64,000 nt of DNA from Eledone cirrhosa (Eukaryota): positions 58,032,001 through 58,096,000 of the forward strand of contig OZ024745.1 in assembly GCA_964016885.1 (NCBI GenBank), in the 5' to 3' direction. The notes below the pieces were generated by a model. That model did no database searches. It saw only the letters and a list, made by a program, of their open reading frames with translations, and had not been told where the DNA came from. The translations under genes and the position numbers were made by a program. Below, piece by piece: positions 1 through 48,795 of the stretch; within the stretch, counting starts at the first letter, position 1; every line of letters begins with the position of its first letter.

Positions 1-2625
1 CGGTTGTCCGGTGAGGAATACGTAGAGGTGCCGTAGCCTTAATGCGTGTTTACGCATCATTAGCCACGGCATCCCCAGCCCTCCTTTCGAAGGGTGTTGA
101 CAGCAGATGGATCTCCTCACCATAGGAGCCCGCCCCTTCCAAAGGAATTGGAAGAGCGCGCGCTCCATCTTGGTGAGGGTTTCCCTTGGGCAGGGCACTA
201 CGGTCAGGCGGTAGTAGATGACGGACGCTATATAAGTGTTCGCCACCTCCGCCCGACCTTTCAGGGATAGTTTGCAACTGGCCCACTTCTGGGTCAGTGC
301 AAACACCCTGTTCGTAACCTCCGCCCAGTTTTTCTCCACCTGGAGGTCCGGTCCGAACCAGACCCCGAGCAACTTCACCGGGCCCTCCGTCCAGCGTCCG
401 ACGACGCCATCGGAGGGCATCGGTCTGCCCCTCCACGTGCCGAGTTGCAAACCGATCGACTTGTCCCGGTTCAGCTTAGCCCCTGTGAACTTTTCGTACT
501 CCTCCAGTAAGTTGCCGACCGCCTCGATTTCGGAGGCCGTCGACACCATTACTGTCACATCATCGGCGTAGGCCGACACCGCTTTCCGCAATCCCGGTTC
601 CAAAGGGATGCCCTGCAACAACTCCAACTTCCGCAGTAGTGGCTCGAGAGTCAACACATACAGAAGGGAGGAGAGAGGGCACCCTTGTCGGATGGACCGC
701 GCGATTTTGAACGGCTCCGAGAGGTAGCCGTTCACCTTGACCCTAGAGCAGATGCGGCTGCTGTGCATAGCAGTGATCCAGCCCCTGAAAACGGGTCCGA
801 AGCCTGCCGCCGCTAGCACCGCATTCAGGTAACCATGGTCGACCCTATCGAACGCCTTAGATTGATCCAAGTTGATCAGAGCCCCACCAAAGCCGGGTTC
901 GTTCCCAACCCTCTCTATGATGTATCGCATGAGGTGGAGGTTGTCATGGATGGACCTGGACGGGATAGCGCATGTCTGCGCATCTCCCACCAGGTTGCCC
1001 ACGACAAGCGCCAACCTCTTTGCTAGCACCTTGGCCAAAATCTGTAACTCTGTATTTAGCAGAGTTATGGGCCTGAAGTTACTTATTTCGTCCCCCTTGT
1101 TCTCGTCCTTCCTCACTAGCGTGACTACGCCCTTGGTCACAGTACAGGGAATTCTCCCGTTCTGTTGCCAGTTGCAGTAGACCGCCTCGAGGAGATCGGG
1201 GAACAAGTCCGGCATAGCTAGATATAATTCGTAAGGAAGACCATCGAGACCCGGGGATTTGCGTTTGCCGCATTGGCCCAGCACGTCCTCTATCTCAGCG
1301 GCCGAAATCGGCTCCTCGCAAGACTTCGCCTCCCTGTCCGAGAGGCGCGGCAGGCCGTCGAGGTATGGACCGAAGTCCACGTTTCCAACCGGCTCCCCGC
1401 CCCTCCCGAACAGTCGGGCAAAGTGCCTTTGAAAGGCCTCACACATCTGCTTAGGCTCAAGAATCGCCCGTCCATCCAGGTCTCGCAAAGACCGGATGGT
1501 GGATTTAGTTCCACTGTTGGCCTCTGTCACGCGGGCCCAGCTAACAGCTTTGGCCCCCTCGTTCCCTAGAGCACGTATTTTACTTCGGACAACGCAGCCT
1601 TCGTGCTTCGCGTCGAAAAACTGGCTCAAAGCCGTTCTCGACGCTAGCACTCTGGCCACGTCGCCGCTTCTAATTGCCTCTTCTACTCTATCTATTAGCT
1701 CCCTTTCCTTCCTATTCCTATCCGCAGCTAGAACCTTACTAAATTCAATCGAGACTACTCTAATCTCTCTCTTTAGAGATACCCACCACCTGCTGTTGAC
1801 GATCGCTCCAGTCAACCGTTCCTTAACTAACGTACTAATCCGATTCCTGTAGGCTCTACTTGCCGGCAAGGACAAGTTGAGCTTCCAGTAACCGGGGCCC
1901 TGTCTATGCGTTCTATCAAGGTTGACCATGCAGGTCACCAACTTGTGGTCTGAATAGCCAACCATGAGCATTTCTGGACAACTTAAAAAGTCCCTGTCCT
2001 TATTTCTAACTAAAAATCTGTCTAGGTACGATCTAGATGATCCGCTGCGATTTGACCAAGACCAGGTTGGCACCGTCGGAAAATCTAGTCGAAATCTATC
2101 GGCCAGGTCAAATCGGCCGAGTAACCCCTTGAGGCTGTTGCACCCCTCTCTATCGGGACATGCCCCTGCATAGTCCCAACGTGCATCCAGGATACCATTC
2201 CAATCCCCCACTAAAAGCAGGGAACGGGACGTCCCTAGAAAAGACTCCAGACGCTGGAAAAAGTCGGGCCGCTCTGTCCCAAAAGGGGCATATGCGGCTA
2301 TCAGCCTAAGGGCTCTACCTTCACCACTGCCAAGGTCCAGCACCACCAGTCGACCCCCTGGGTCCAAGTGAACTATCTGTGTTGCAAGGCCCATATGTTT
2401 TTGCAGCAGAACGACAACCCCACCCCCACCTCCGGGCTGACAGAGAGATGCGTGCATCTCAAAGTCGTCAAAGGTGGGGGCTAGCTGTCGCATGCTGCTG
2501 ATCCGGGCCTCGCAGATAACCATCACATTTATAGATTGTGACCTGAGGTCATTTAGAAGCATTGCTTGCTTCCAAGACGAGCCCAGGCCACGCGCATTTA
2601 GACACCCTACTCTTAGCACAGCCAT
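1..2625 (-). CDS. ORF2 (APE endonuclease + reverse transcriptase), partial, runs off the window start
   Basis: Same sequence as ORF2 of A2. ATG (MAVLRVGCLNARGL) at 2625; GDWN and SDHK endonuclease motifs; QGCPLS and YADD RT motifs. Confidence 0.92.
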   Translation of the reverse strand, partial: MAVLRVGCLNARGLGSSWKQAMLLNDLRSQSINVMVICEARISSMRQLAPTFDDFEMHASLCQPGGGGGVVVLLQKHMGLATQIVHLDPGGRLVVLDLGSGEGRALRLIAAYAPFGTERPDFFQRLESFLGTSRSLLLVGDWNGILDARWDYAGACPDREGCNSLKGLLGRFDLADRFRLDFPTVPTWSWSNRSGSSRSYLDRFLVRNKDRDFLSCPEMLMVGYSDHKLVTCMVNLDRTHRQGPGYWKLNLSLPASRAYRNRISTLVKERLTGAIVNSRWWVSLKREIRVVSIEFSKVLAADRNRKERELIDRVEEAIRSGDVARVLASRTALSQFFDAKHEGCVVRSKIRALGNEGAKAVSWARVTEANSGTKSTIRSLRDLDGRAILEPKQMCEAFQRHFARLFGRGGEPVGNVDFGPYLDGLPRLSDREAKSCEEPISAAEIEDVLGQCGKRKSPGLDGLPYELYLAMPDLFPDLLEAVYCNWQQNGRIPCTVTKGVVTLVRKDENKGDEISNFRPITLLNTELQILAKVLAKRLALVVGNLVGDAQTCAIPSRSIHDNLHLMRYIIERVGNEPGFGGALINLDQSKAFDRVDHGYLNAVLAAAGFGPVFRGWITAMHSSRICSRVKVNGYLSEPFKIARSIRQGCPLSSLLYVLTLEPLLRKLELLQGIPLEPGLRKAVSAYADDVTVMVSTASEIEAVGNLLEEYEKFTGAKLNRDKSIGLQLGTWRGRPMPSDGVVGRWTEGPVKLLGVWFGPDLQVEKNWAEVTNRVFALTQKWASCKLSLKGRAEVANTYIASVIYYRLTVVPCPRETLTKMERALFQFLWKGRAPMVRRSICCQHPSKGGLGMPWLMMRKHALRLRHLYVFLTGQP

Positions 2626-2649
2626 GTTGGTGGTAAAGAGAAAAGGCAC

Positions 2650-4298
2650 TTACCTCTCTGCGTCCCGGGAAACGGGCCGCTCAATTTCCATGCTGGTTGG
2701 GGATGGGTTGTTGGGTGGGGTGGTGGTTTGTGGAAGTGAAGGGGCATCGGTGTGTTGTGGGGTTGGGGTGTTTGTCGTTGAGTGGGTGTCTGGGTGGGGT
2801 GGGGGGGTGAAATTTTTTAGGAGGACGCGGTTGATTGGTTTGGCGCAGGGGGGGCCCACGTCCTCCGTGAAATTTATTTTCAGTGTTTTGTACAAGTGCA
2901 TTGGGACTTTTATCATTTTCAAATGAGGTAGTCCCACAGCAGTTATAAAGTTTGGCCCTTCAGTTTGGACCGAAGGGTTTGCTGAAATTGTTTTCCGTAA
3001 TTCTTTGTTGTCTGTGTTCATGTATGTGTATTGTAAGGTCTTTTTTTGTGTAGCAGTTAGTGTTGTGTGACAGGGAGGGGTGGTTTGTGTGTAGTTTGTG
3101 TTCTCTTGGGGGGGGTTAAAGTTAACATGTGTGTCTGTGGTGCGTCTCCTCTTCTTTCTTTTTACTTGTTGGAAGGGATCTTTTTCGTCTTGCGACGAAA
3201 GAGGTTCGTCTTCCTTGTTGGGTGGGAGGGGTATGTTTTCTGGTAGTGTTTGCGGTGTGCGTGTTTTTGTATTTGTTTTGGGTGGGGAGGGATTGGGTGG
3301 GACAGTATTCTGTGTTATTTTTTCACGTGTTTGTTGTTGTTGTTGTTGTTGTTGTGGTGGTGGTGGTGGGGTTGTTGGTTTTTGTTGTTGTTGTGGTTGT
3401 TTTTGTTGTTGTAGTTGGGGTGGTGTTGGTGTTGGTAGCAGTGTTTTTTTCTGTGTGAGCTGGGGACAGGCAGCCCTCAGGTGACCTCTATTGCCACAGA
3501 GGTAACAGGAGGGACGCCTACCCTCCACAATAATGTTGAGGTGGGTACGGTCATCCAGCATGACGCGCTCAGGGATTTGGGCGATGCGTTCTGGCCTTAT
3601 TTGGGTCAGAACTTCGAGGCTCGTTCCACTGAACGCGTCGCCGGATGCCTTCCCTATTGAGATGAGGTTGTCCTCGTCTAAATTGAGGAAACCGGTTAGT
3701 AACCACCAGTAGTTTATGTTTGGGGTGATGGTGGTTATCCATATCCTCTGGGTTTTTTTACCCATGTAGGTGGGGAAGAAGGTGTAGTGTGTGGACCGAA
3801 TTGGCGACACAGAGTATTTTTTTGCCGCCAATTCGTCTTTCATCAATATGGATAAACTCCCATAGAGTTTATCCTTTTGTATGAAAGTGATGTCTCTCAT
3901 CGCGTCTTTCAAGACTAACTGAGTTTCCGTTTGAGATGGTTGCGCTGGTTTCTTTGTTTTATTTAAAATTGTTCGGAATACGACAGTTCGTAATTCCGTC
4001 TGTCTTTTTAGCTCCGGAGGTGAATGTATAGAAAACGATCCGTTTTCGCCAAAAGACACATATTTCTTGGCTTTTTCCAGCATTTCTTTTGCTTTTGAAA
4101 TATCTTCCAGCACATAAGCGACTGATAATTTAGCCGTTTGTGCAAAAGATATTTTGTTTTCGCTTTGGATATTAGTATTGTTTTGTTTCTCGTCGTTTGC
4201 GTTGTTTTCATCTTTGTTGTTGTTGTTGTCTTTCTCGTTTCGTGTGTGGATACTTGTGACGTTTGTGTTGTTGTTGTTTTTGTTGTCTTTATTGTTGC

Positions 4299-4329
<31 letters not shown>

Positions 4330-4509
4330 GTTGTTTTCAAATTCTTGTGTAGTTGTGGCTACATCTAGTGGTCGGTCAACAGGTGAAGACAATTCTTCCT
4401 CTCTCTGACCTCTGCCTTTGGCATCTGCTGCTGTGACAGTGGCAGGGGGAAGCTGTGAGTATGACTTCCCTTTTCTTTCTTTGATTGATGGTGAAGATGC
4501 TTCAGCCAT
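2650..4509 (-). CDS. ORF1, gag-like nucleic-acid-binding protein with CCHC zinc knuckle
   Basis: 622-aa ORF in track (2650..4518), first ATG at 4509. Knuckle CYLCGNRGHLRAAC = CX2CX4HX4C; flanks are rich in N, Q, P and T. Confidence 0.9.
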
Positions 4510-4728
4510 TTTTCTCAAAATAGGGTTTTTCGAAGTTTTTCGAAAGATAAAATGTTCACAATACTATTTCGCCCAAAGGCGCAGAATATTTTGAGAGACC
4601 GACCAGATCAAAATTTGACCTGGCAGTCCCTCTACAAAATGATACAAAAATGAAAGTTTACAGTTTACAATTTCCGTATGAATTTAAACAAAAACTTACC
4701 GAGCGAGCTCAGCACATGTGTCCATCGT

Positions 4729-4734
4729 AGAGAG

Positions 4735-4791
<57 letters not shown>
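4729..4791. repeat. (GATA)n microsatellite spacer between Tx1 units
   Basis: Direct reading. Confidence 0.97.
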
Positions 4792-7405
4792 TGTTTCTTT
4801 ATTAGCCACAGGGGCAAAAAAGAATGGATCGTGTGATATGGAACGGCTCCGACAGGTAGCCGTTCACCTTGATCCTTGAGCAGATGTTGCTGTTGTGCAT
4901 TGCAGCAATCCAGCCCCTGAACACGGGTCCGGAGCCTGCCGCTTCGAGCACCGCATCCAGGTAACGATGGTCAACCCTATCGAAAGCCTTAGACTGATCC
5001 AAGTTGATCAGGGCCCCACCGAAGCCTGGTTTACACCCTACCCTCTCTATGATGTATCGCATGAGGTGGAGGTTGTCATGTATGGACCTGGTCGGGATTG
5101 CGCATGTCTGCGCTTCTCCCACCAGGTTCTCGACGACAAGCGCCAGCCTCTTTGCCAACACCTTGGCCAAAATCTGTAACTCTGTGTTTAGCTGAGTTAT
5201 GGGCCGGAGGTTGCCTATGTCATCTCCCTTATTCTCGTCCTTCCTGTTCACACATCCAACTCTTATATTGGCCATGTTGGTGCTGAAATTTAAAAGAGGA
5301 AAAGAGATCACTCACCCTTCGCCTCCTGGGGACCAGGCCGCACTATTTCCATGGGGGTGTTGGAGGGGTTGTCTGGATGGGTGGTGGTTTCCGGCGGGGT
5401 GGGGACGCAGATGTTTGGTTGGGTGGGGTCTGGTGGGATGGGGATGTCTGGAGTGGGGAGACATTTGAGAAGGACGCGGTTGAGTGGTTTCACGCAGGAA
5501 TTCCCCACATCCTTCTCAAATGTTTCTTTTAGGGACCTATAAGTTTGTATAGGGACCCTAATCAGTTTTAGGTTCAGTTTTTTGCTATTTTTTATAGAGT
5601 GGGCGAAAGTTTTCCCTTCGGTTTTCACCGAAGGGTCGTTCGTGATGGTCTCCATTAGTGTTTTGTTTTCAGTGCTTATGTAAGTGTAAGTGTAATTTTC
5701 TTGTGTTGTGTTTGTTTTTGTCTGTAGTTCTTGTGTGTGCTTTCGTTTTGTTGTAGGTATTTTGTTTTCAGGAGGTGGGGGTTTTGTTTGTGATATTTTT
5801 GTTGTTTGTGTTGGTGGTTGTATGTTTGTGGTAGTGTTTGCTGGTTTTTTGCTTTTGTGATGTCTTTTCTTTCTTTTCCAGCGATGGGGTTCTCCCTCGT
5901 CTTCACTGGGTGATGGCGAGATAGCCTCATCTGTTGTATCGTCTGTGTGATTGGGGAGGGGTATGTCTTGGGGAGCTGTTGTGTCTGTATGTGATTTTGC
6001 AGTGGTTTTAGGTGGAGTGGGGTTGGGTGGGACTGTGTTTGTTGTGGTTATTTTTGTGTGTTGGTGTTGTTGTTGTGGTGGTGTTGGTGGTTGTGTTGTT
6101 TTGATGGGTGTCGGCAGAAGAGCCTTTTTTTGGAGGACAGGAAGCCCTCAGGTGACCCCTGCTAAAGCAATGGTAACATGAAGGCCGCCTACCCTCAACC
6201 GAAAGGTTTATGTAGGTAAGTCCGTCCAGGAGTACACGCTGTGGGATCATTTGCACTAGAACTTCAATGCTAGTCCCATTGAATACATCTCTGGGGGACT
6301 TTCCTACTGACAGTATTCTGTCTTCATCAAAATTGATGAAGCCGCACAGTATCCACCATATGTTCACCTTTGGTGTGACACTTGTGATTCTGATCTTTTG
6401 TGTCCTTTTTCCCATGTATGTAGGGAAAAGGGTGTACAGGTTGGATACAATTGGCGACACAGAGTAATTTTGTGCCGTCAATTGATCCTTCATCAGTACC
6501 GAAATACTCCCAAAAAGTTTGCTTCTTTGAATGAATGCAATATCATTCATTGAATCTTTGAAAACCAGTTCAATATCTTTCTGTGACAATTGGACTGGTT
6601 TTCTGGTAGAATTGGAAACTGTCCTAAAAACTATCGTTTTGGGAGCAGTTTCCTTGCGAATTTCTACCGGAGAATTGATGCTGAAAGCACCATTTTTTTC
6701 GAAGGTGACATATCTCTTAGCGTCCTTTAAAAGGTGTTCAGCATTTGTTATGTCGAGATATATCAATTGTTCTTTCTTTTGAACTTTCTCCGCAAAGGAG
6801 ATTTTTGGTTTCTTTGTGGAATCCGTATTGGTGGTGTTGTCATTATTGTTGTTATTTTTGTTGTTATTCTTGTTGTCACCGATGTTGGTATCATCCGTAT
6901 TTTCCTTGGTGTTGTTGTTGTCTTTGATGCTGGTGTTATTGGCGTTGTCTTTATTTTTTTCTTTGTTGTTGTTATCATGTTGCTTTTATCATCATTATTG
7001 GTTTTGCTGTTATTTTTGTTGTCATTGAGCTGTTTGGTGTCATTTGTGTTGTTTGGATGTGAATTCGTTTTTTTATTTTCATTTTGTCCTTCCATCTCTA
7101 TAGTATCTAGTGAAGAAGACGTTGTTGACTGCGAGCTTTGTAGTCTTACCGCCTCTCCACCACCATTATCGTTGGACGCAGCGTTCATAATTTAATCAAA
7201 ATTTTACAATATTTTTTCCAAGATTCGATGGAGAAAATTTTTTTAAATGGAAATTCCGCTCCTGAAGGGGCGAAAATGAGTTGACCCACCACCTGAAGGT
7301 CCAGACGGGTGGTCAAGTTACACAATGATGTACAATTTAACTAAAAACTCACGTTTTTTTCTTACATAAATTAACGGAAACTTCTCCGCGAAGTGACACA
7401 CGACT
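4791..7405 (-). mobile_element. Internally deleted non-autonomous Tx1 derivative, family B, copy B1 (~2.6 kb)
   Basis: Keeps the 5' UTR and a frameshifted ORF1 (6763..7188, 6008..6766, 5308..5655). ORF2 start MANIRVGCVN is fused in frame to RKDENKGD...HITRSI, then jumps to the last ~31 nt with AATAAA. Confidence 0.9.
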
Positions 7406-7429
7406 GATAGAGAGATAGATAGATAGATA
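7406..7429. repeat. (GATA)n spacer
   Basis: Direct reading. Confidence 0.9.
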
Positions 7430-9566
7430 TATTTCTTTATTAGCCACAGGGGCACAAAAGAAGGGGACAAATACAAAGGGGGAAGTTTACATACAATAAA
7501 AACGTGTAAAATGTTATCACAGATGGAATTTAAAAGTTAGTCGATTTTCCCCAATAGAGGGAGACAGTTTATATGGGTAACACAGACCCCCGAAAAAAAT
7601 GTGCAACCCTCATCTCCAGGAGTACGAAGAGCTTGTACTCCTTTCCTCTCCTCCTCCTTTTCCTCAACCTACAGGCTGATATAGAGAGAAGGCCCATTCA
7701 CTCGGGCCATTCTCGCCACTTTCACCCACCTTTCATAAAACTTGCTGGGGTACAGCACCTCTCTCTCCATCCTGATTCTTCTTCCAAAGTGGTATTTGAA
7801 AAAAAGAATCAGTTGTTGGCCGGAGAGAAAGGTGTCTGACCTCAGCCCTTTCAACCTTGTCCACCATACAACCTCTTTCGCCATAGCTATCACACAAAGG
7901 AAAACCGCCTCTCCTTCGTTTTTGAAGGAGGGTGGCGGTTTGATCATGACAATGGACTCGGTGGTCAACTGGATTGGTCCCACCCGCGACAATAGTCGTT
8001 CCACATAGCCCCACAGGTCAGTGACGCCCGGGCAGTGTATGAATGCGTGCGCGACGGTTTCTTCGTCTCGCACGCACCTCGGGCAGATCTTTTTTGCAGG
8101 GTCCCTGCCCGGGCGCCCATGTCTGTAGAGCTTGTCTCGAACTGGTAGAGCTCCTCGGTAGCACTGCCAGGCCAGGGACTTTTGGAAGTTGTCCATCGGT
8201 CCCGGGCGGAAGGTCCTACCGAACAGACTGGCCAGTTCATCTTCCTCCACGCCTAGAGTTTCACCGAGCGCGTCGTCGCACTTGCTGCGGACCAACCCTC
8301 TATAGAATGACGAAGTGGAGTCTCCACTGATCGCCGGGTCCGCCTGCCAGAGGGCTGTGAGCGCCTGAGCACATTCGATGTGCCAGTCGCCCATTTTCCT
8401 CGGTCTCTGCTTGACCCAGGACTGCAGCTCGGTCAGCGAGACGAGTCGTGGGAAGGCTCGCCTCACGAACGGGGCCCACACCGGTTGTCCGGTGAGGAAT
8501 ACGTAGAGATGCCGCAGCCTGAGCGCGTGTTTGCGCATCGTCAACCACGGCATCCCCAGCCCTCCGTTAGAAGGGTGTTGGCAGCAGATGGATCTTCTTA
8601 CCAAAGGAGCCCGCCTCTTCCAAAGGAATCGGAAGAGGGCGCGCTCCATTTTGGCGAGCGTTTTGGCTGGACAAGGCACGACGGTCAAGCGGTAGTAGAT
8701 GGCGGACGCTATAAAAGTGTTCGCCACCTCCGCTCGACCTTTCAAGGATAGTTTGCACTCGGCCCACTTCTGGGTGAGTGCAAACACCTTGGCCGTCACT
8801 TCGTTCCAGTTCTTCTCCACCTGGAGGTCCGGACCAAACCAGACCCCGAGCAGCTTTACCGGTCCTTCCGTCCAGCGTCCGACGACGCCATCGGAAGGCA
8901 TCGGTCTGCCTCTCCACGATCCGAGTTGCAAACCGATGGACTTGTCCCGGTTCAGCTTCGCTCCTGTGAGACTTTCGTATTCCTTTAGTAAGGTGCCGAC
9001 TTCCTCGATTTGCGAGGCGCTCGACACCATTACTGTCACGTCGTCGGCGTAGGCCGACGCCGCTTTCCGCAGTCCCGGTTCCAGAGGGATGCCCTGCAAT
9101 AGCTCCAGCTTCCGCAGTAGTGGCTCGAGAGTCAGTACGTACAGAAGGGAGGAGAGAGGGCATCCCTGTCGAATGGATCGCGTAATATGGAACGGCTCCG
9201 AGAGGTAACCGTTCACCTTGACCCTTGAGCAGATGTTGCTGTTGTGCATTGCAGCAATCCAGCCCCTGAACACGGGTCCGAAGCCTGCCGCCTCGAGCAC
9301 CGCATCCAGGTAACGATGGTCAACCCTATCGAAAGCCTTAGACTGATCCAAGTTGATCAGGGCCCCACCGAAGCCGGGTTTACACCCTACCCTCTCTATG
9401 ATGTATCGCATGAGGTGGAGGTTGTCGTGTATGGACCTGGTCGGGATCGCGCATGTCTGCGCTTCTCCCACCAGGTTCTCGACGACAAGCGCCAGCCTCT
9501 TTGCCAACACCTTGGCCAAAATCTGTAACTCTGTGTTTAGCAGAGTTATGGGCCGGAAGTTGCCTA
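7430..9566 (-). mobile_element. 5'-truncated Tx1-like element (copy C, undeleted 3' half of family B)
   Basis: RT segment VVENLVGEAQTCAIPTRSIHDNL...GCKPGFGG and 3' terminus match the B derivative. Full 3' UTR present. Confidence 0.9.
7669..9564 (-). pseudogene. 5'-truncated ORF2 (RT + C-terminal CCHC finger), open frame without a start
   Basis: QGCPLS, YADD, CPRC...HAFIHC; frame open from GNFRPIT at 9564. Confidence 0.88.
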
Positions 9567-9833
9567 GATAAGTTTCTTTTATTTGCCACTAGGGCATCAA
9601 AAGTGGGACAAGTACAAAGGGGGGAGTTTACACAAAAAGGCGTCCTCAATAAGGAGGAGGCAATAACAAAATATAAAAATAAAATAAGATATAACAAAAA
9701 TAAAATTTTTAACAAAATCCTCAATAGAGAGGAGGCGCCTTGGGGGGTCGCACACACCCCCGAAAAAAGTGTGCAACCCTTTTCCTCAGGAGCACAGAGA
9801 GGGGGTGCTCCCTCGTTCCTTCCTCTTTTCCAC

Positions 9834-12800
9834 CTACAGGCTTATGTAAAGAGAAGGCCCATTCACACGGGCCATTCTCGCCACTTTCACCCACCTTTCA
9901 TAAAAACGACTGGGGTGCAGCACCTCTCTCTCCATCCTGATCCTTCTTCCGAAATGATATCGGAAGAAACGGACCAGTTGTTGGCCAGAGAGAAAGGTGC
10001 CTGACCTCAGTCCTTTCAGACGCGTCCACCATACAACCTCTTTCGCCATGGCTATTACGCACAGAAACACCGCCTCTGCTTCATCTTTGAAGGGGGGAGG
10101 CGGCTTGATCATTACAATAGACTCGGTGGTCAACCGGATCGGTCCCACCCTTGACAGCAGTTGTTCGACATAGCCCCACAGATCGGCTACGCCCGAGCAG
10201 TGTACCAATGCGTGTGCAACGGTTTCCTCGTCGCACACGCATCTGGGACAGATCTTTTTGGCGGGGTCCCTACCCGGGCGCCCGTGTCTGTAGAGCCTTT
10301 CTCGAACGGGTAAAGCCCCTCGGTAGCACTGCCAGGCCAGGGACTTCTGGAAGTTGTCCATAGGTCCCGGGCTGAATGTCCTACCGAACAGGCTGGCCAG
10401 TTCGTCCTCCTCCATGTCTAGGGCTTCTCCGAGGGCGTCGTCGCACCTGCTGCGTACCAGCCCTCTATAGAATGTTGCGGTGGAGTCTCCACTGATAACC
10501 GGATCCGCCTGCCAGAGGGCGGTGAGCGCCTGGGCACACTCAGTGTGCCAGGCGCCCAGTTTTCTCGGTCTTTGCTTGACCCAGGATTGCAGCTCGGTGA
10601 GTGAGACGAGTCTGGGAAAGGTTCGTCTCACAAACGAGGCCCACACCGGTTGTCCGGTAAGGAATACGTAGAGGTGCCGTAGCCTTAATGCGTGTTTACG
10701 CATCATTAGCCACGGCATCCCCAGCCCTCCTTTCGAAGGGTGTTGACAGCAGATGGATCTCCTCACCATAGGAGCCCGCCCCTTCCAAAGGAATTGGAAG
10801 AGCGCGCGCTCCATCTTGGTGAGGGTTTCCCTTGGGCAGGGCACTACGGTCAGGCGGTAGTAGATGACGGACGCTATATAAGTGTTCGCCACCTCCGCCC
10901 GACCTTTCAGGGATAGTTTGCAACTGGCCCACTTCTGGGTCAGTGCAAACACCCTGTTCGTAACCTCCGCCCAGTTTTTCTCCACCTGGAGGTCCGGTCC
11001 GAACCAGACCCCGAGCAACTTCACCGGGCCCTCCGTCCAGCGTCCGACGACGCCATCGGAGGGCATCGGTCTGCCCCTCCACGTGCCGAGTTGCAAACCG
11101 ATCGACTTGTCCCGGTTCAGCTTAGCCCCTGTGAACTTTTCGTACTCCTCCAGTAAGTTGCCGACCGCCTCGATTTCGGAGGCCGTCGACACCATTACTG
11201 TCACATCATCGGCGTAGGCCGAAACCGCTTTCCGCAATCCCGGTTCCAAAGGGATGCCCTGCAACAACTCCAACTTCCGCAGTAGTGGCTCGAGAGTCAA
11301 CACATACAGAAGGGAGGAGAGAGGGCACCCTTGTCGGATGGACCGCGCGATTTTGAACGGCTCCGAGAGGTAGCCGTTCACCTTGACCCTAGAGCAGATG
11401 CGGCTGCTGTGCATAGCAGTGATCCAGCCCCTGAAAACGGGTCCGAAGCCTGCCGCCGCTAGCACCGCATTCAGGTAACCATGGTCGACCCTATCGAACG
11501 CCTTAGATTGATCCAAGTTGATCAGAGCCCCACCAAAGCCGGGTTCGTTCCCAACCCTCTCTATGATGTATCGCATGAGGTGGAGGTTGTCATGGATGGA
11601 CCTGGACGGGATAGCGCATGTCTGCGCATCTCCCACCAGGTTGCCCACGACAAGCGCCAACCTCTTTGCTAGCACCTTGGCCAAAATCTGTAACTCTGTA
11701 TTTAGCAGAGTTATGGGCCTGAAGTTACTTATTTCGTCCCCCTTGTTCTCGTCCTTCCTCACTAGCGTGACTACGCCCTTGGTCACAGTACAGGGAATTC
11801 TCCCGTTCTGTTGCCAGTTGCAGTAGACCGCCTCGAGGAGATCGGGGAACAAGTCCGGCATAGCTAGATATAATTCGTAAGGAAGACCATCGAGACCCGG
11901 GGATTTGCGTTTGCCGCATTGGCCCAGCACGTCCTCTATCTCAGCGGCCGAAATCGGCTCCTCGCAAGACTTCGCCTCCCTGTCCGAGAGGCGCGGCAGG
12001 CCGTCGAGGTATGGACCGAAGTCCACGTTTCCAACCGGCTCCCCGCCCCTCCCGAACAGTCGGGCAAAGTGCCTTTGAAAGGCCTCACACATCTGCTTAG
12101 GCTCAAGAATCGCCCGTCCATCCAGGTCTCGCAAAGACCGGATGGTGGATTTAGTTCCACTGTTGGCCTCTGTCACGCGGGCCCAGCTAACAGCTTTGGC
12201 CCCCTCGTTCCCTAGAGCACGTATTTTACTTCGGACAACGCAGCCTTCGTGCTTCGCGTCGAAAAACTGGCTCAAAGCCGTTCTCGACGCTAGCACTCTG
12301 GCCACGTCGCCGCTTCTAATTGCCTCTTCTACTCTATCTATTAGCTCCCTTTCCTTCCTATTCCTATCCGCAGCTAGAACCTTACTAAATTCAATCGAGA
12401 CTACTCTAATCTCTCTCTTTAGAGATACCCACCACCTGCTGTTGACGATCGCTCCAGTCAACCGTTCCTTAACTAACGTACTAATCCGATTCCTGTAGGC
12501 TCTACTTGCCGGCAAGGACAAGTTGAGCTTCCAGTAACCGGGGCCCTGTCTATGCGTTCTATCAAGGTTGACCATGCAGGTCACCAACTTGTGGTCTGAA
12601 TAGCCAACCATGAGCATTTCTGGACAACTTAAAAAGTCCCTGTCCTTATTTCTAACTAAAAATCTGTCTAGGTACGATCTAGATGATCCGCTGCGATTTG
12701 ACCAAGACCAGGTTGGCACCGTCGGAAAATCTAGTCGAAATCTATCGGCCAGGTCAAATCGGCCGAGTAACCCCTTGAGGCTGTTGCACCCCTCTCTATC

Positions 12801-13271
12801 GGGACATGCCCCTGCATAGTCCCAACGTGCATCCAGGATACCATTCCAATCCCCCACTAAAAGCAGGGAACGGGACGTCCCTAGAAAAGACTCCAGACGC
12901 TGGAAAAAGTCGGGCCGCTCTGTCCCAAAAGGGGCATATGCGGCTATCAGCCTAAGGGCTCTACCTTCACCACTGCCAAGGTCCAGCACCACCAGTCGAC
13001 CCCCTGGGTCCAAGTGAACTATCTGTGTTGCAAGGCCCATATGTTTTTGCAGCAGAACGACAACCCCACCCCCACCTCCGGGCTGACAGAGAGATGCGTG
13101 CATCTCAAAGTCGTCAAAGGTGGGGGCTAGCTGTCGCATGCTGCTGATCCGGGCCTCGCAGATAACCATCACATTTATAGATTGTGACCTGAGGTCATTT
13201 AGAAGCATTGCTTGCTTCCAAGACGAGCCCAGGCCACGCGCATTTAGACACCCTACTCTTAGCACAGCCAT
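9834..13271 (-). CDS. ORF2: APE endonuclease, reverse transcriptase, C-terminal zinc finger (~1145 aa)
   Basis: Track ORF 9834..13295, first ATG at 13271. Motifs LNARGL, GDWN, SYLDRF, SDHK, GPGYWKLN, KSPGLDG, RPITLLN, DQSKAFDRV, QGCPLS, YADD, CPRC..H..C are typical of Tx1/L1 ORF2. Confidence 0.95.
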   Translation of the reverse strand: MAVLRVGCLNARGLGSSWKQAMLLNDLRSQSINVMVICEARISSMRQLAPTFDDFEMHASLCQPGGGGGVVVLLQKHMGLATQIVHLDPGGRLVVLDLGSGEGRALRLIAAYAPFGTERPDFFQRLESFLGTSRSLLLVGDWNGILDARWDYAGACPDREGCNSLKGLLGRFDLADRFRLDFPTVPTWSWSNRSGSSRSYLDRFLVRNKDRDFLSCPEMLMVGYSDHKLVTCMVNLDRTHRQGPGYWKLNLSLPASRAYRNRISTLVKERLTGAIVNSRWWVSLKREIRVVSIEFSKVLAADRNRKERELIDRVEEAIRSGDVARVLASRTALSQFFDAKHEGCVVRSKIRALGNEGAKAVSWARVTEANSGTKSTIRSLRDLDGRAILEPKQMCEAFQRHFARLFGRGGEPVGNVDFGPYLDGLPRLSDREAKSCEEPISAAEIEDVLGQCGKRKSPGLDGLPYELYLAMPDLFPDLLEAVYCNWQQNGRIPCTVTKGVVTLVRKDENKGDEISNFRPITLLNTELQILAKVLAKRLALVVGNLVGDAQTCAIPSRSIHDNLHLMRYIIERVGNEPGFGGALINLDQSKAFDRVDHGYLNAVLAAAGFGPVFRGWITAMHSSRICSRVKVNGYLSEPFKIARSIRQGCPLSSLLYVLTLEPLLRKLELLQGIPLEPGLRKAVSAYADDVTVMVSTASEIEAVGNLLEEYEKFTGAKLNRDKSIGLQLGTWRGRPMPSDGVVGRWTEGPVKLLGVWFGPDLQVEKNWAEVTNRVFALTQKWASCKLSLKGRAEVANTYIASVIYYRLTVVPCPRETLTKMERALFQFLWKGRAPMVRRSICCQHPSKGGLGMPWLMMRKHALRLRHLYVFLTGQPVWASFVRRTFPRLVSLTELQSWVKQRPRKLGAWHTECAQALTALWQADPVISGDSTATFYRGLVRSRCDDALGEALDMEEDELASLFGRTFSPGPMDNFQKSLAWQCYRGALPVRERLYRHGRPGRDPAKKICPRCVCDEETVAHALVHCSGVADLWGYVEQLLSRVGPIRLTTESIVMIKPPPPFKDEAEAVFLCVIAMAKEVVWWTRLKGLRSGTFLSGQQLVRFFRYHFGRRIRMEREVLHPSRFYERWVKVARMARVNGPSLYISL

Positions 13272-13295
13272 GTTGGTGGTAAAGAGAAAAGGCAC

Positions 13296-14944
13296 TTACC
13301 TCTCTGCGTCCCGGGAAACGGGCCGCTCAATTTCCATGCTGGTTGGGGATGGGTTGTTGGGTGGGGTGGTGGTTTGTGGAAGTGAAGGGGCATCGGTGTG
13401 TTGTGGGGTTGGGGTGTTTGTCGTTGAGTGGGTGTCTGGGTGGGGTGGGGGGGTGAAATTTTTTAGGAGGACGCGGTTGATTGGTTTGGCGCAGGGGGGG
13501 CCCACGTCCTCCGTGAAATTTATTTTCAGTGTTTTGTACAAGTGCATTGGGACTTTTATCATTTTCAAATGAGGTAGTCCCACAGCAGTTATAAAGTTTG
13601 GCCCTTCAGTTTGGACCGAAGGGTTTGCTGAAATTGTTTTCCGTAATTCTTTGTTGTCTGTGTTCATGTATGTGTATTGTAAGGTCTTTTTTTGTGTAGC
13701 AGTTAGTGTTGTGTGACAGGGAGGGGTGGTTTGTGTGTAGTTTGTGTTCTCTTGGGGGGGGTTAAAGTTAACATGTGTGTCTGTGGTGCGTCTCCTCTTC
13801 TTTCTTTTTACTTGTTGGAAGGGATCTTTTTCGTCTTGCGACGAAAGAGGTTCGTCTTCCTTGTTGGGTGGGAGGGGTATGTTTTCTGGTAGTGTTTGCG
13901 GTGTGCGTGTTTTTGTATTTGTTTTGGGTGGGGAGGGATTGGGTGGGACAGTATTCTGTGTTATTTTTTCACGTGTTTGTTGTTGTTGTTGTTGTTGTTG
14001 TGGTGGTGGTGGTGGGGTTGTTGGTTTTTGTTGTTGTTGTGGTTGTTTTTGTTGTTGTAGTTGGGGTGGTGTTGGTGTTGGTAGCAGTGTTTTTTTCTGT
14101 GTGAGCTGGGGACAGGCAGCCCTCAGGTGACCTCTATTGCCACAGAGGTAACAGGAGGGACGCCTACCCTCCACAATAATGTTGAGGTGGGTACGGTCAT
14201 CCAGCATGACGCGCTCAGGGATTTGGGCGATGCGTTCTGGCCTTATTTGGGTCAGAACTTCGAGGCTCGTTCCACTGAACGCGTCGCCGGATGCCTTCCC
14301 TATTGAGATGAGGTTGTCCTCGTCTAAATTGAGGAAACCGGTTAGTAACCACCAGTAGTTTATGTTTGGGGTGATGGTGGTTATCCATATCCTCTGGGTT
14401 TTTTTACCCATGTAGGTGGGGAAGAAGGTGTAGTGTGTGGACCGAATTGGCGACACAGAGTATTTTTTTGCCGCCAATTCGTCTTTCATCAATATGGATA
14501 AACTCCCATAGAGTTTATCCTTTTGTATGAAAGTGATGTCTCTCATCGCGTCTTTCAAGACTAACTGAGTTTCCGTTTGAGATGGTTGCGCTGGTTTCTT
14601 TGTTTTATTTAAAATTGTTCGGAATACGACAGTTCGTAATTCCGTCTGTCTTTTTAGCTCCGGAGGTGAATGTATAGAAAACGATCCGTTTTCGCCAAAA
14701 GACACATATTTCTTGGCTTTTTCCAGCATTTCTTTTGCTTTTGAAATATCTTCCAGCACATAAGCGACTGATAATTTAGCCGTTTGTGCAAAAGATATTT
14801 TGTTTTCGCTTTGGATATTAGTATTGTTTTGTTTCTCGTCGTTTGCGTTGTTTTCATCTTTGTTGTTGTTGTTGTCTTTCTCGTTTCGTGTGTGGATACT
14901 TGTGACGTTTGTGTTGTTGTTGTTTTTGTTGTCTTTATTGTTGC

Positions 14945-14975
<31 letters not shown>

Positions 14976-15155
14976 GTTGTTTTCAAATTCTTGTGTAGTT
15001 GTGGCTACATCTAGTGGTCGGTCAACAGGTGAAGACAATTCTTCCTCTCTCTGACCTCTGCCTTTGGCATCTGCTGCTGTGACAGTGGCAGGGGGAAGCT
15101 GTGAGTATGACTTCCCTTTTCTTTCTTTGATTGATGGTGAAGATGCTTCAGCCAT
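13296..15155 (-). CDS. ORF1, gag-like protein with CCHC zinc knuckle
   Basis: Identical translation to ORF1 of A1; ATG at 15155. Confidence 0.9.
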
Positions 15156-15374
15156 TTTTCTCAAAATAGGGTTTTTCGAAGTTTTTCGAAAGATAAAATG
15201 TTCACAATACTATTTCGCCCAAAGGCGCAGAATATTTTGAGAGACCGACCAGATCAAAATTTGACCTGGCAGTCCCTCTACAAAATGATACAAAAATGAA
15301 AGTTTACAGTTTACAATTTCCGTATGAATTTAAACAAAAACTTACCGAGCGAGCTCAGCACATGTGTCCATCGT

Positions 15375-15380
15375 AGAGAG

Positions 15381-15441
<61 letters not shown>
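15375..15441. repeat. (GATA)n spacer
   Basis: One unit longer than the 4729-4791 spacer. Confidence 0.97.
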
Positions 15442-18055
15442 TGTTTCTTTATTAGCCACAGGGGCAAAAAAGAATGGATCGTGTGATATGGAACGGCTCC
15501 GACAGGTAGCCGTTCACCTTGATCCTTGAGCAGATGTTGCTGTTGTGCATTGCAGCAATCCAGCCCCTGAACACGGGTCCGGAGCCTGCCGCTTCGAGCA
15601 CCGCATCCAGGTAACGATGGTCAACCCTATCGAAAGCCTTAGACTGATCCAAGTTGATCAGGGCCCCACCGAAGCCTGGTTTACACCCTACCCTCTCTAT
15701 GATGTATCGCATGAGGTGGAGGTTGTCATGTATGGACCTGGTCGGGATTGCGCATGTCTGCGCTTCTCCCACCAGGTTCTCGACGACAAGCGCCAGCCTC
15801 TTTGCCAACACCTTGGCCAAAATCTGTAACTCTGTGTTTAGCTGAGTTATGGGCCGGAGGTTGCCTATGTCATCTCCCTTATTCTCGTCCTTCCTGTTCA
15901 CACATCCAACTCTTATATTGGCCATGTTGGTGCTGAAATTTAAAAGAGGAAAAGAGATCACTCACCCTTCGCCTCCTGGGGACCAGGCCGCACTATTTCC
16001 ATGGGGGTGTTGGAGGGGTTGTCTGGATGGGTGGTGGTTTCCGGCGGGGTGGGGACGCAGATGTTTGGTTGGGTGGGGTCTGGTGGGATGGGGATGTCTG
16101 GAGTGGGGAGACATTTGAGAAGGACGCGGTTGAGTGGTTTCACGCAGGAATTCCCCACATCCTTCTCAAATGTTTCTTTTAGGGACCTATAAGTTTGTAT
16201 AGGGACCCTAATCAGTTTTAGGTTCAGTTTTTTGCTATTTTTTATAGAGTGGGCGAAAGTTTTCCCTTCGGTTTTCACCGAAGGGTCGTTCGTGATGGTC
16301 TCCATTAGTGTTTTGTTTTCAGTGCTTATGTAAGTGTAAGTGTAATTTTCTTGTGTTGTGTTTGTTTTTGTCTGTAGTTCTTGTGTGTGCTTTCGTTTTG
16401 TTGTAGGTATTTTGTTTTCAGGAGGTGGGGGTTTTGTTTGTGATATTTTTGTTGTTTGTGTTGGTGGTTGTATGTTTGTGGTAGTGTTTGCTGGTTTTTT
16501 GCTTTTGTGATGTCTTTTCTTTCTTTTCCAGCGATGGGGTTCTCCCTCGTCTTCACTGGGTGATGGCGAGATAGCCTCATCTGTTGTATCGTCTGTGTGA
16601 TTGGGGAGGGGTATGTCTTGGGGAGCTGTTGTGTCTGTATGTGATTTTGCAGTGGTTTTAGGTGGAGTGGGGTTGGGTGGGACTGTGTTTGTTGTGGTTA
16701 TTTTTGTGTGTTGGTGTTGTTGTTGTGGTGGTGTTGGTGGTTGTGTTGTTTTGATGGGTGTCGGCAGAAGAGCCTTTTTTTGGAGGACAGGAAGCCCTCA
16801 GGTTACCCCTGCTAAAGCAATGGTAACATGAAGGCCGCCTACCCTCAACCGAAAGGTTTATGTAGGTAAGTCCGTCCAGGAGTACACGCTGTGGGATCAT
16901 TTGCACTAGAACTTCAATGCTAGTCCCATTGAATACATCTCTGGGGGACTTTCCTACTGACAGTATTCTGTCTTCATCAAAATTGATGAAGCCGCACAGT
17001 ATCCACCATATGTTCACCTTTGGTGTGACACTTGTGATTCTGATCTTTTGTGTCCTTTTTCCCATGTATGTAGGGAAAAAGGTGTACAGGTTGGATACAA
17101 TTGGCGACACAGAGTAATTTTGTGCCGTCAATTGATCCTTCATCAGTACCGAAATACTCCCAAAAAGTTTGCTTCTTTGAATGAATGCAATATCATTCAT
17201 TGAATCTTTGAAAACCAGTTCAATATCTTTCTGTGACAATTGGACTGGTTTTCTGGTAGAATTGGAAACTGTCCTAAAAACTATCGTTTTGGGAGCAGTT
17301 TCCTTGCGAATTTCTACCGGAGAATTGATGCTGAAAGCACCATTTTTTTCGAAGGTGACATATCTCTTAGCGTCCTTTAAAAGGTGTTCAGCATTTGTTA
17401 TGTCGAGATATATCAATTGTTCTTTCTTTTGAACTTTCTCCGCAAAGGAGATTTTTGGTTTCTTTGTGGAATCCGTATTGGTGGTGTTGTCATTATTGTT
17501 GTTATTTTTGTTGTTATTCTTGTTGTCACCGATGTTGGTATCATCCGTATTTTCCTTGGTGTTGTTGTTGTCTTTGATGCTGGTGTTATTGGCGTTGTCT
17601 TTATTTTTTTCTTTGTTGTTGTTATCATGTTGCTTTTATCATCATTATTGGTTTTGCTGTTATTTTTGTTGTCATTGAGCTGTTTGGTGTCATTTGTGTT
17701 GTTTGGATGTGAATTCGTTTTTTTATTTTCATTTTGTCCTTCCATCTCTATAGTATCTAGTGAAGAAGACGTTGTTGACTGCGAGCTTTGTAGTCTTACC
17801 GCCTCTCCACCACCATTATCGTTGGACGCAGCGTTCATAATTTAATCAAAATTTTACAATATTTTTTCCAAGATTCGATGGAGAAAATTTTTTTAAATGG
17901 ATATTCCGCCCCTGAAGGGGCGAAAATGAGTTGACCCACCACCTGAAGGTCCAGACGGGTGGTCAAGTTACACAATGATGTACAATTTAACTAAAAACTC
18001 ACGTTTTTTTCTTACATAAATTAACGGAAACTTCTCCGCGAAGTGACACACGACT
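15441..18055 (-). mobile_element. Internally deleted Tx1 derivative, copy B2
   Basis: Near-identical to B1 (offset 10650). Confidence 0.9.
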
Positions 18056-18062
18056 GATAGAG

Positions 18063-18104
<42 letters not shown>

Positions 18105-18105
18105 T

Positions 18106-18166
<61 letters not shown>
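18056..18166. repeat. (GATA)n spacer with one GTTA variant
   Basis: Direct reading; GTTA at 18104. Confidence 0.97.
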
Positions 18167-18167
<1 letters not shown>

Positions 18168-20781
18168 TGTTTCTTTATTAGCCACAGGGGCAAAAAAGAA
18201 TGGATCGTGTGATATGGAACGGCTCCGACAGGTAGCCGTTCACCTTGATCCTTGAGCAGATGTTGCTGTTGTGCATTGCAGCAATCCAGCCCCTGAACAC
18301 GGGTCCGGAGCCTGCCGCTTCGAGCACCGCATCCAGGTAACGATGGTCAACCCTATCGAAAGCCTTAGACTGATCCAAGTTGATCAGGGCCCCACCGAAG
18401 CCTGGTTTACACCCTACCCTCTCTATGATGTATCGCATGAGGTGGAGGTTGTCATGTATGGACCTGGTCGGGATTGCGCATGTCTGCGCTTCTCCCACCA
18501 GGTTCTCGACGACAAGCGCCAGCCTCTTTGCCAACACCTTGGCCAAAATCTGTAACTCTGTGTTTAGCTGAGTTATGGGCCGGAGGTTGCCTATGTCATC
18601 TCCCTTATTCTCGTCCTTCCTGTTCACACATCCAACTCTTATATTGGCCATGTTGGTGCTGAAATTTAAAAGAGGAAAAGAGATCACTCACCCTTCGCCT
18701 CCTGGGGACCAGGCCGCACTATTTCCATGGGGGTGTTGGAGGGGTTGTCTGGATGGGTGGTGGTTTCCGGCGGGGTGGGGACGCAGATGTTTGGTTGGGT
18801 GGGGTCTGGTGGGATGGGGATGTCTGGAGTGGGGAGACATTTGAGAAGGACGCGGTTGAGTGGTTTCACGCAGGAATTCCCCACATCCTTCTCAAATGTT
18901 TCTTTTAGGGACCTATAAGTTTGTATAGGGACCCTAATCAGTTTTAGGTTCAGTTTTTTGCTATTTTTTATAGAGTGGGCGAAAGTTTTCCCTTCGGTTT
19001 TCACCGAAGGGTCGTTCGTGATGGTCTCCATTAGTGTTTTGTTTTCAGTGCTTATGTAAGTGTAAGTGTAATTTTCTTGTGTTGTGTTTGTTTTTGTCTG
19101 TAGTTCTTGTGTGTGCTTTCGTTTTGTTGTAGGTATTTTGTTTTCAGGAGGTGGGGGTTTTGTTTGTGATATTTTTGTTGTTTGTGTTGGTGGTTGTATG
19201 TTTGTGGTAGTGTTTGCTGGTTTTTTGCTTTTGTGATGTCTTTTCTTTCTTTTCCAGCGATGGGGTTCTCCCTCGTCTTCACTGGGTGATGGCGAGATAG
19301 CCTCATCTGTTGTATCGTCTGTGTGATTGGGGAGGGGTATGTCTTGGGGAGCTGTTGTGTCTGTATGTGATTTTGCAGTGGTTTTAGGTGGAGTGGGGTT
19401 GGGTGGGACTGTGTTTGTTGTGGTTATTTTTGTGTGTTGGTGTTGTTGTTGTGGTGGTGTTGGTGGTTGTGTTGTTTTGATGGGTGTCGGCAGAAGAGCC
19501 TTTTTTTGGAGGACAGGAAGCCCTCAGGTTACACCTGCTAAAGCAATGGTAACATGAAGGCCGCCTACCCTCAACCGAAAGGTTTATGTAGGTAAGTCCG
19601 TCCAGGAGTACACGCTGTGGGATCATTTGCACTAGAACTTCAATGCTAGTCCCATTGAATACATCTCTGGGGGACTTTCCTACTGACAGTATTCTGTCTT
19701 CATCAAAATTGATGAAGCCGCACAGTATCCACCATATGTTCACCTTTGGTGTGACACTTGTGATTCTGATCTTTTGTGTCCTTTTTCCCATGTATGTAGG
19801 GAAAAAGGTGTACAGGTTGGATACAATTGGCGACACAGAGTAATTTTGTGCCGTCAATTGATCCTTCATCAGTACCGAAATACTCCCAAAAAGTTTGCTT
19901 CTTTGAATGAATGCAATATCATTCATTGAATCTTTGAAAACCAGTTCAATATCTTTCTGTGACAATTGGACTGGTTTTCTGGTAGAATTGGAAACTGTCC
20001 TAAAAACTATCGTTTTGGGAGCAGTTTCCTTGCGAATTTCTACCGGAGAATTGATGCTGAAAGCACCATTTTTTTCGAAGGTGACATATCTCTTAGCGTC
20101 CTTTAAAAGGTGTTCAGCATTTGTTATGTCGAGATATATCAATTGTTCTTTCTTTTGAACTTTCTCCGCAAAGGAGATTTTTGGTTTCTTTGTGGAATCC
20201 GTATTGGTGGTGTTGTCATTATTGTTGTTATTTTTGTTGTTATTCTTGTTGTCACCGATGTTGGTATCATCCGTATTTTCCTTGGTGTTGTTGTTGTCTT
20301 TGATGCTGGTGTTATTGGCGTTGTCTTTATTTTTTTCTTTGTTGTTGTTATCATGTTGCTTTTATCATCATTATTGGTTTTGCTGTTATTTTTGTTGTCA
20401 TTGAGCTGTTTGGTGTCATTTGTGTTGTTTGGATGTGAATTCGTTTTTTTATTTTCATTTTGTCCTTCCATCTCTATAGTATCTAGTGAAGAAGACGTTG
20501 TTGACTGCGAGCTTTGTAGTCTTACCGCCTCTCCACCACCATTATCGTTGGACGCAGCGTTCATAATGTAATCAAAATTTTACAATATTTTTTCCAAGAT
20601 TCGATGGAGAAAATTTTTTTAAATGGATATTCCGCCCCTGAAGGGGCGAAAATGAGTTGACCCACCACCTGAAGGTCCAGACGGGTGGTCAAGTTACACA
20701 ATGATGTACAATTTAACTAAAAACTCACGTTTTTTTCTTACATAAATTAACGGAAACTTCTCCGCGAAGTGACACACGACT
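18167..20781 (-). mobile_element. Internally deleted Tx1 derivative, copy B3
   Basis: Tandem copy of B2, period 2726. Confidence 0.9.
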
Positions 20782-20788
20782 GATAGAG

Positions 20789-20826
<38 letters not shown>

Positions 20827-20827
20827 T

Positions 20828-20892
<65 letters not shown>
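20782..20892. repeat. (GATA)n spacer with one GTTA variant
   Basis: Direct reading; GTTA at 20826. Confidence 0.97.
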
Positions 20893-20893
<1 letters not shown>

Positions 20894-22928: not shown

Positions 22929-23160
22929 GATAGATAGATAGATATATTTCTTTATTTACCATAAAGGCATAAAAGAAGGGCCAAATACAAAGGGGGAGTT
23001 TACATACAATCGAGTAAAAAGGGTATAAAATGAAAATAATCGAAAACAACCTCAAAAGGGAGGGGACGTGATGGGGGTTGCACACACCCCCGAAAAAGTG
23101 TGCAATCCTTTGCCCGGGGAGCACATGGAGAAGGTGCTCCCCTCTCCTTCACTTCTTTAC

Positions 23161-28766: not shown

Positions 28767-28872
<106 letters not shown>

Positions 28873-29871: not shown

Positions 29872-30071
29872 NNNNNNNNNNNNNNNNNNNNNNNNNNNNN
29901 NNNNNNNNNNNNNNNNNNNNNNNNNNNNNNNNNNNNNNNNNNNNNNNNNNNNNNNNNNNNNNNNNNNNNNNNNNNNNNNNNNNNNNNNNNNNNNNNNNNN
30001 NNNNNNNNNNNNNNNNNNNNNNNNNNNNNNNNNNNNNNNNNNNNNNNNNNNNNNNNNNNNNNNNNNNNNNN
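29872..30071. other. Assembly gap (200 N) followed by a long (TA)n
   Basis: Run of N. Confidence 0.99.

Positions 30072-48745: not shown

Positions 48746-48795
<50 letters not shown>

Follow-up and report, generated by a model that had tools for sequence, protein, structure and literature searches.

UnaL2 of the eel and ZfL2-1 and ZfL2-2 of zebrafish, which belong to the L2 clade, end in a conserved 3'-terminal element and a short tandem-repeat tail, and the stem of this element is longer than 3-4 bp. In the available excerpts of the zebrafish study, the ZfL2 ORF2 protein binds its cognate stem-loop (PMC4176376; the "TX1" of that text is the name of a mutant and not of a clade). Stringent LINEs are described, as far as the accessible parts of three papers go, as recognising a 3' element next to the tail (PMC4176376, PMC3472496, PMC3747384). 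Stringent members have also been reported within the L1 clade, namely the maize and sorghum LINE1-1_ZM lineage and L1-1_CR of Chlamydomonas (Ohshima 2012, PMC3472496). In the available part of that paper, the last ~45 nt of these plant and algal elements are conserved far above the rest and can form a hairpin with compensatory changes, and the conserved tails are taken as evidence of stringent recognition inside the L1 clade. Moreover, target-specific LINEs of the Tx1 clade include Tx1L, Keno, Kibi on (TC)n, Koshi on (TTC)n and crocodilian Tx1 elements on (TTCC)n/(TTTC)n and Mariner, and the crocodilian SINEU elements, which Tx1 is believed to mobilise, have poly(A) (excerpts of PMC4494074 and PMC3812793). 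According to an excerpt of a further paper, all vertebrate L1s end in AATAAA and poly(A) (PMC5381506). Within the openly available full-text literature searched, no description of a 3' hairpin or conserved 3' box was found for Tx1-type elements.

Here we analysed a 64-kb stretch of DNA from Eledone cirrhosa (the whole stretch is referred to as the window) together with the organism's own 3.0-Gb genome, in which many LINEs end in a common 3'-terminal box. As in UnaL2 and ZfL2, a conserved 3'-terminal element is joined to a short tandem-repeat tail, the loop sequence is conserved, and reverse transcription begins in the tail. The present carriers differ in being L1/Tx1-like elements with APE, RT and zf-RVT domains, of another clade, and in having a stem of 3-4 bp that abuts AAUAAA, with no partner SINE among ~130 loci and no Rfam match. 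Plant and algal stringent L1s, as described in the available text, have poly(A) ends and a tail shared with SINEs, whereas the copies analysed here are without poly(A), no SINE was found, and the tails consist of microsatellite or satellite; the genome, at 3 Gb, is of animal size, and compensatory changes are far fewer. With the Tx1-clade LINEs of the excerpts cited above they have in common the domain set and the insertion into specific repeats or microsatellites, which makes them candidate members of that clade. Finally, they resemble mammalian L1, which is relaxed and poly(A)-dependent, in the AATAAA hexamer at the very 3' end, but differ from it in that the copies inspected are without poly(A), the hexamer is preceded by a conserved box, and the template passes on the repeat tail. 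Judging from sequence comparisons, we consider it an evenly balanced question whether a 13-nt element, as the core of a ~45-nt box with ~30,000 copies, serves as a cis signal for RT recognition and positioning in TPRT, in the form of a small hairpin with two C-G clamp pairs.

Copies of the box in the window

The window is a head-to-tail array, in which positions 1-7429 repeat 10647-18079 at 99.87% identity. The preliminary description had quoted four stem-loops, named A, B/C, D and E, and all of them were located on the sense strand. In copy A, the stem-loop TGCC-CTAGT-GGCA (9584-9596, minus strand) has 4 bp and a 5-nt loop. It is followed by the terminal AATAAAAGAAA (9573-9583, minus strand), which is longer by one A than the family norm AATAAAGAAA, and then by a brief TATC remnant and a 5'-truncated neighbouring copy. 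The upstream part of its terminal block, composed of GTAAAC, a C-run, TTTGTAYTTGTCCC and a Y-rich stretch (9597-9631, minus strand), is common to the C and D families. Copy C has TGCC-CCTGT-GGCT (7442-7454, minus strand), with 3 bp and an outer U.U mismatch, followed by AATAAAGAAA (7432-7441, minus strand), TA and (TATC)n. The same stem-loop is present in copy B, an internally deleted element (4804-4816, minus strand), with identical duplicates at 15454-15466, 18180-18192 and 20906-20918 (minus strand). Its AATAAAGAAA lies at 4794-4803 (also at 15444-15453, 18170-18179 and 20896-20905; all minus strand), and CA and (TATC)n at 4731-4791 come next. Because the outer pair of B and C is U.U, their stem is one of 3 bp.

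Copy D has TGCC-TTTAT-GGTA (22957-22969, minus strand), in which the second pair from the outside (pair 2) is G.U; its AATAAAGAAA (22947-22956, minus strand) is followed by TA and (TATC)4, and the TATC repeat is found again at its 5' flank (28767-28872). The stem-loop of copy E, AACC-CTTGT-GGTT (51447-51459, plus strand), has A-U at both outer pairs, and it is followed by AATAAAGAAA (51460-51469, plus strand) and by (ATT)n at 51472-51520, with (ATT)n at 48747-48795 on the 5' side. A decayed second E-like copy, ATCC-CTTGT-GGTT (54136-54148, plus strand), is followed by AATAATGTAA and (ATT)n. The E stem could alternatively be aligned with the GTAAAC..TTTGTA that precedes the stem in A, C and D, but this was rejected, as a comparison of more families showed that E has its own upstream TGTACTGTCC block. 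Among the window stems only the two outer pairs differ, and the two inner C-G pairs are invariant. In total, the window has 8 occurrences of AATAAAGAAA, where 0.41 would be expected, and 7 of the 8 stand directly after a box, the eighth, at 62097, being without one.

Two further features of the window were recorded. A 200-N assembly gap (29872-30071) adjoins a long (AT)n tract. From 54187 onward, an unrelated repeat starting AAAGTACCAGTAATG[C/T]ACTG[G/A]... adjoins (ATT)n, as it also does at three loci elsewhere (L090, L125 and L132), and it is possibly another element that uses the (ATT)n microsatellite.

The B element forms tandem units of 2,726 bp (15381-22176) with (GATA)n between the units. 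The four B copies arose by segmental or tandem duplication and are 99.3-99.9% identical, and for this reason they are not independent observations. The preliminary description had also placed the stem-loop within the only ~31 nt of 3' UTR retained by the deleted B copies, and a reading of these copies as a natural experiment with a minimal 3' end was rejected. The deletion junction occurs only 5 times in the genome, always within the single array at C5:58,028,284-58,052,943, so the variant spread by local duplication only; it is therefore uninformative on the 3' sequence sufficient for mobility. No dispersed deletion derivative with the box was found among the ~130 loci sampled, the B variant being confined to this one locus.

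Carrier elements and their targets

The ORF2 of these elements is a 1153-aa ORF with the domains Exo_endo_phos, RVT_1 and zf-RVT, that is, the APE, the RT and the C-terminal zinc knuckle expected of the Tx1 clade of L1-like LINEs. An upstream 622-aa ORF without a Pfam match is in frame with it, with a single stop codon between the two (13293-13298, and also 2647-2652, minus strand), and this arrangement hints at expression of ORF2 by read-through or re-initiation. Insertion is target-specific, since D and E are each flanked on both sides by their own repeat, one family has a fixed satellite site, and the tails differ by family. The carriers are thus L1/Tx1-like by domain set and target specificity and putative members of the Tx1 clade; a homologue search gave no named relative. 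The preliminary description had considered the lineage to be without poly(A), and this was borne out: at 30 ORF2-anchored loci, AATAAA followed by A10 was seen in none, and the tails are microsatellite or satellite. Genomic copies ending in poly(A), as expected of a relaxed, poly(A)-dependent L1, were therefore not encountered among them.

About 130 loci were inspected for family and tail assignment, and at least 15 LINE families among them end in the box. Named by the two sides of the stem, they include TGCC/GGCA (with loops CTAGT or CTGGT, one of these families sitting at a fixed site in a ~72-bp satellite), D (TGCC/GGTA), TGCC/GGCT, CGCC/GGCA and CGCC/GGCT, E (AACC/GGTT), AGCC/GGCC, and several deep lineages with GGCC/GGCC and GGCC/GGCT. 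As tails they carry (TATC)n, (ATT)n running in either direction, the ~72-bp satellite, or a repeat containing GGTGGATTGGCCGTATCG. In the satellite-site family, TGCC-CT[A/G]GT-GGCA is always followed by CCACTCTATATATACTATTG..., the start of the ~72-bp tandem satellite (L031-L033, L040, L041, L069 and C1:4,228,978-4,259,391), and at the last of these places six copies form an array with a spacing of 5.7-7.1 kb. Copies that target (ATT)n were seen in both orientations, with tails TAATAATAA... (L081, L083) and CCATTATTATT... (L082, L094). Another group ends in AATAAATGAAA and not in AATAAAGAAA (L107, L113, L116, L118, L119, L130, L133, L135); its stems are GGCC/GGCT, with an outer G.U, or GGCC/GGCC, and its tails are (ATT)n. 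In five copies of GGCC/GACC type (L035, L055, L068, L089, L098), a GGTGGATTGGCCGTATCGATAGAG-like sequence recurs within 10-40 nt on the 3' side, which points to a further repeat or transposon being targeted specifically.

No partner SINE was present among the ~130 sampled loci, and those without an ORF2 match are 5'-truncated LINE copies or tiny stumps. Rfam gave no family at gathering level in the window and nothing at the box up to E=1; matches in one further locus (L103) fell below the cut-off and were set aside as AT-microsatellite artefacts. A metagenome scan for the box returned 35 loci, all of them chance matches without the upstream block or repeat tails. Contigs of a second organism are 85-99% like the 3' UTR and box of the D family, so that the families are common to at least one relative, and the family is highly repeated in the contigs examined.

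Abundance in the genome

The motif CC-N5-GG-NN-AATAAAGAAA, searched as the pattern DNNCCNNNNNGGNNAATAAAGAAA, gave 29,133 matches in the 3.0-Gb genome against 10 for the reversed control. The main patterns demand CC and GG, that is, the inner two pairs. A stem-free pattern (TGTCC-N15-40-AATAAAGAAA) gave 28,643 matches against 662 for the control. Among the first 100 of these, tallied by hand as were the other samples of 100 rows, 86 keep CC-N5-GG, 12 show the box with one substitution or indel, and 2 are apparently unrelated. The terminal variant AATAAATGAAA adds at least 442 matches (1 in the control), a lower bound because the first letter of the pattern left out C. Furthermore, we took a sample that was blind to the box, consisting of the 30 best zf-RVT matches, and searched 1.5 kb downstream of each: the box is intact, at a distance of 600-700 nt, in 25 of the 30, decayed in 3 and absent from the 1.5 kb in 2. 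The box is a sharp annotation marker, in that one 24-nt pattern leads to ~30,000 element ends with ~10 false matches.

Conservation of the box

The 3' terminus is conserved well beyond the remaining 3' UTR, as it is in stringent-type LINEs, and this holds across families with different targets. Similarity between groups is restricted to the final ~45-60 nt of the 3' UTRs. The ORF2 C-terminal identity, meanwhile, is 28-65% per aligned piece (L084, L091, L092 and L103 against A and E), and the ORF2 proteins of box families are as low as 30-50% identical, which together argues that the box is under selection. An alignment of 31 hand-picked representatives shows no variation in the columns of CC, GG and AATAAAGAAA, and the loop ends in T in at least 90% of them. 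The consensus CC-YYNGU-GG-NN-AAUAAA(G/UG)AAA is present in every family sampled, irrespective of the target. Dead copies, on the other hand, do decay at the four clamp positions, with a substitution or indel in 12 of 98 related rows. Since dead copies lose clamp bases, the invariance of the clamp at the level of families points to selection in the propagating lineages. These sequence data show the conserved 3' box to be real, present in very many copies and under selection.

Evidence for pairing

The preliminary description had held that the stem changes in sequence while its pairing is kept. This finds some support at pair 2, which went from G-C to A-U in two lineages, but not in the rest of the stem, as the outer pair is often mismatched and the inner pairs are invariant. 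In the alignment of the 31 representatives, pairing exceeds that of shuffles, and the RNAalifold covariation is close to zero. In the terminal 61 columns, RNAalifold returned the hairpin as the sole consensus structure (-4.35 kcal/mol), with nearly all of the energy from folding and a covariation term of 0.04. Paired cells make up 88.7%, compared with 79.9% in shuffled alignments (0 of 500 shuffles reach 88.7%) and 8-57% for slid partners, and the covariation score is 0.211 against 0.094 in shuffles, a control that disregards the relatedness of the representatives.

In the genome as a whole, pair 2 is G-C in 17,396 copies, A-U in 10,558, G.U in 2,008 and A.C in 739, and it is thus canonical or wobble in 97.6% of 30,701 copies. 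The A.C rows are scattered, and many of them are CACC, the CpG-decay product of CGCC. The lineages were placed on a tree of ORF2 C termini (52 rows, a quick IQ-TREE run on tblastn-anchored fragments of decayed copies). GGCC/GGCC occupies deep branches in each of the two major groups. E falls within GGCC/GGCC lineages as sister to AGCC/GGCC, while D, with its G.U, is nested within the TGCC/GGCA clade; 8 of the first 100 D copies listed have TACC, that is, A-U. On this tree, A-U at pair 2 arose twice, once in the E clade and once within the D clade via G.U. Both of these 5'-side G-to-A changes occurred in the only two clades with U (T) as the 3' partner, and such clades account for 6.0% of the tree length (12.8% of the internal length), from which the chance can be put, roughly and post hoc, at 0.004-0.016. 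With only 2-3 independent contrasts for pair 2 and 3-5 for pair 1, the sign test lacks power (p=1).

Among the first 100 of the 29,133 copies, 48 have no outer pair, and the outer bases are A.C in 50 of 100 rows with C or G as the 3' base (both hand tallies). The outer pair is mismatched in the abundant families AGCC/GGCC, TGCC/GGCT, CGCC/GGCA and CGCC/GGCT (A.C, U.U, C.A and C.U, respectively), and in the CGCC clade the 3' outer base toggles between A and U and pairs in neither state. The inner two pairs (3 and 4) yield no covariation information, because they are invariant. The helix can be extended by pairing U(G/A)U with the AUA of AAUAAA, and the three pairs form in 29 of 31, 20 of 30 and 26 of 29 representatives; here the 3' side is invariant, so covariation cannot bear on this pairing. 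The free energy of the hairpin ranges from -1.0 to -6.4 kcal/mol. In a 125-nt context, the pair probability exceeds 0.8 in 15 of 26 representatives, and a competing fold wins in 11 of the 26. Unless a protein is bound, a stem of 3 bp would be marginal. From the alignments, a core of 3 bp to which a fourth pair may be added is plausible, with some real backing from one pair.

The box could also act as a linear single-stranded motif in which the hairpin is incidental, namely as a 3'-processing module (UGU/UGUA-like elements and AAUAAA), a linear protein site, or both, leading to cleavage and polyadenylation in the flanking repeat. We regard this as possible, though on the whole unlikely. AATAAA is both invariant and terminal, the stem is preceded at 1-4 nt by a conserved U(G/A)U, and further up there are TGTA-like motifs; AAUAAA with a U/UGUA-rich upstream region is the make-up of a canonical poly(A) signal, and the majority of the 31 representatives have UGU just upstream. 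Sequence conservation extends over CC, GG and most loop positions, which makes covariation impossible there, and the frequent mismatch of the outer pair and the near-zero RNAalifold term fit a linear motif as well. It accounts poorly, however, for pair 2, which is kept canonical or wobble almost throughout (97.6%) and has changed on both sides in two lineages. Moreover, the genomic copies are without poly(A), so that any polyadenylation is not what gets copied, and generic poly(A) signals are not known to need an invariant CC-N5-GG abutting the hexamer. Weighing the comparisons above, we find a hairpin with a role in RT recognition plausible, with the arguments for and against it close to level.

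Repeat tails and a possible mechanism

The bases that follow the terminal GAAA track the subfamily and not the locus. The D tail begins with TCT- in 12 of 14 copies of one subfamily and in 3 of 11 copies of the other (Fisher p=0.005), and the junction bases are likewise distinct for each of C, E, AGCC and the satellite family. As in stringent-type LINEs, the tandem-repeat tail, (TATC)n or (ATT)n, thus belongs to the template: since its first bases are inherited with the subfamily, the template extends past the box, and reverse transcription starts inside the tail. Two extreme 5' truncations (L090 and L098) are stumps of 23-25 nt, consisting of the box alone within plain (ATT)n, as expected from priming at the 3' end. 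Because one box serves four unrelated targets, it is not a sequence that anneals to the target. The box, a short spacer and a template-copied repeat tail together resemble the anatomy of stringent LINEs.

These features are best read as a stringent-type 3' recognition and initiation box that adjoins a template-copied repeat tail. In such a mechanism, transcripts would read through the element and end in the flanking repeat, where AAUAAA would direct cleavage. The repeat part of the transcript would then anneal to the nicked target repeat, and ORF2p would bind the adjacent box or hairpin, in a stringent mode like that of UnaL2 and ZfL2 and unlike that of the poly(A)-dependent mammalian L1.

A role of the box at the DNA level, be it as part of a preferred landing site beside copies already present or in the synthesis of the second strand, would account for the head-to-tail arrays, which are common both in the window and elsewhere (for example, the six copies at C1:4.229-4.259 Mb), but it is improbable. 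Arrays are expected anyway, as each insertion regenerates the target repeat, the same box is found across four unrelated targets, and its position at the 3' end of every copy, even of the 23-25-nt stumps in (ATT)n, is the signature of a template end. More improbable still is a box without function, shared by recent common ancestry and paired by chance: although many families are closely related and a random 13-mer has an estimated ~5% chance of 3 pairs in register, the box is kept in deep lineages whose ORF2 identity is 30-50% and whose 3' UTRs cannot otherwise be aligned, and the decay of the clamp in dead copies (12/98) marks its invariance among families as selection.

Discussion

Returning to the reading of the box as a stringent-type recognition signal, we tentatively propose, with some reserve, an animal L1-clade (Tx1-like) superfamily in which stringent recognition would proceed via a minimal C-G-clamped hairpin fused to the poly(A) hexamer, and in which the read-through target repeat would serve as the primer-annealing tail. 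This RNA-recognition module would have remained constant as the endonuclease moved between at least four targets. If this is true, stringent recognition would be the ancestral state of the L1 clade, and this would apply to animals no less than to plants.

Should the box prove to be the recognition signal, the Tx1 branch of the L1 clade would gain a very small, defined cis element of ~24-45 nt, and the way in which an L1-type ORF2p chooses its template without poly(A) would become directly testable. Whether the relaxed recognition of mammalian L1 is derived, and how target specificity and template specificity evolve separately, would then become testable as well.
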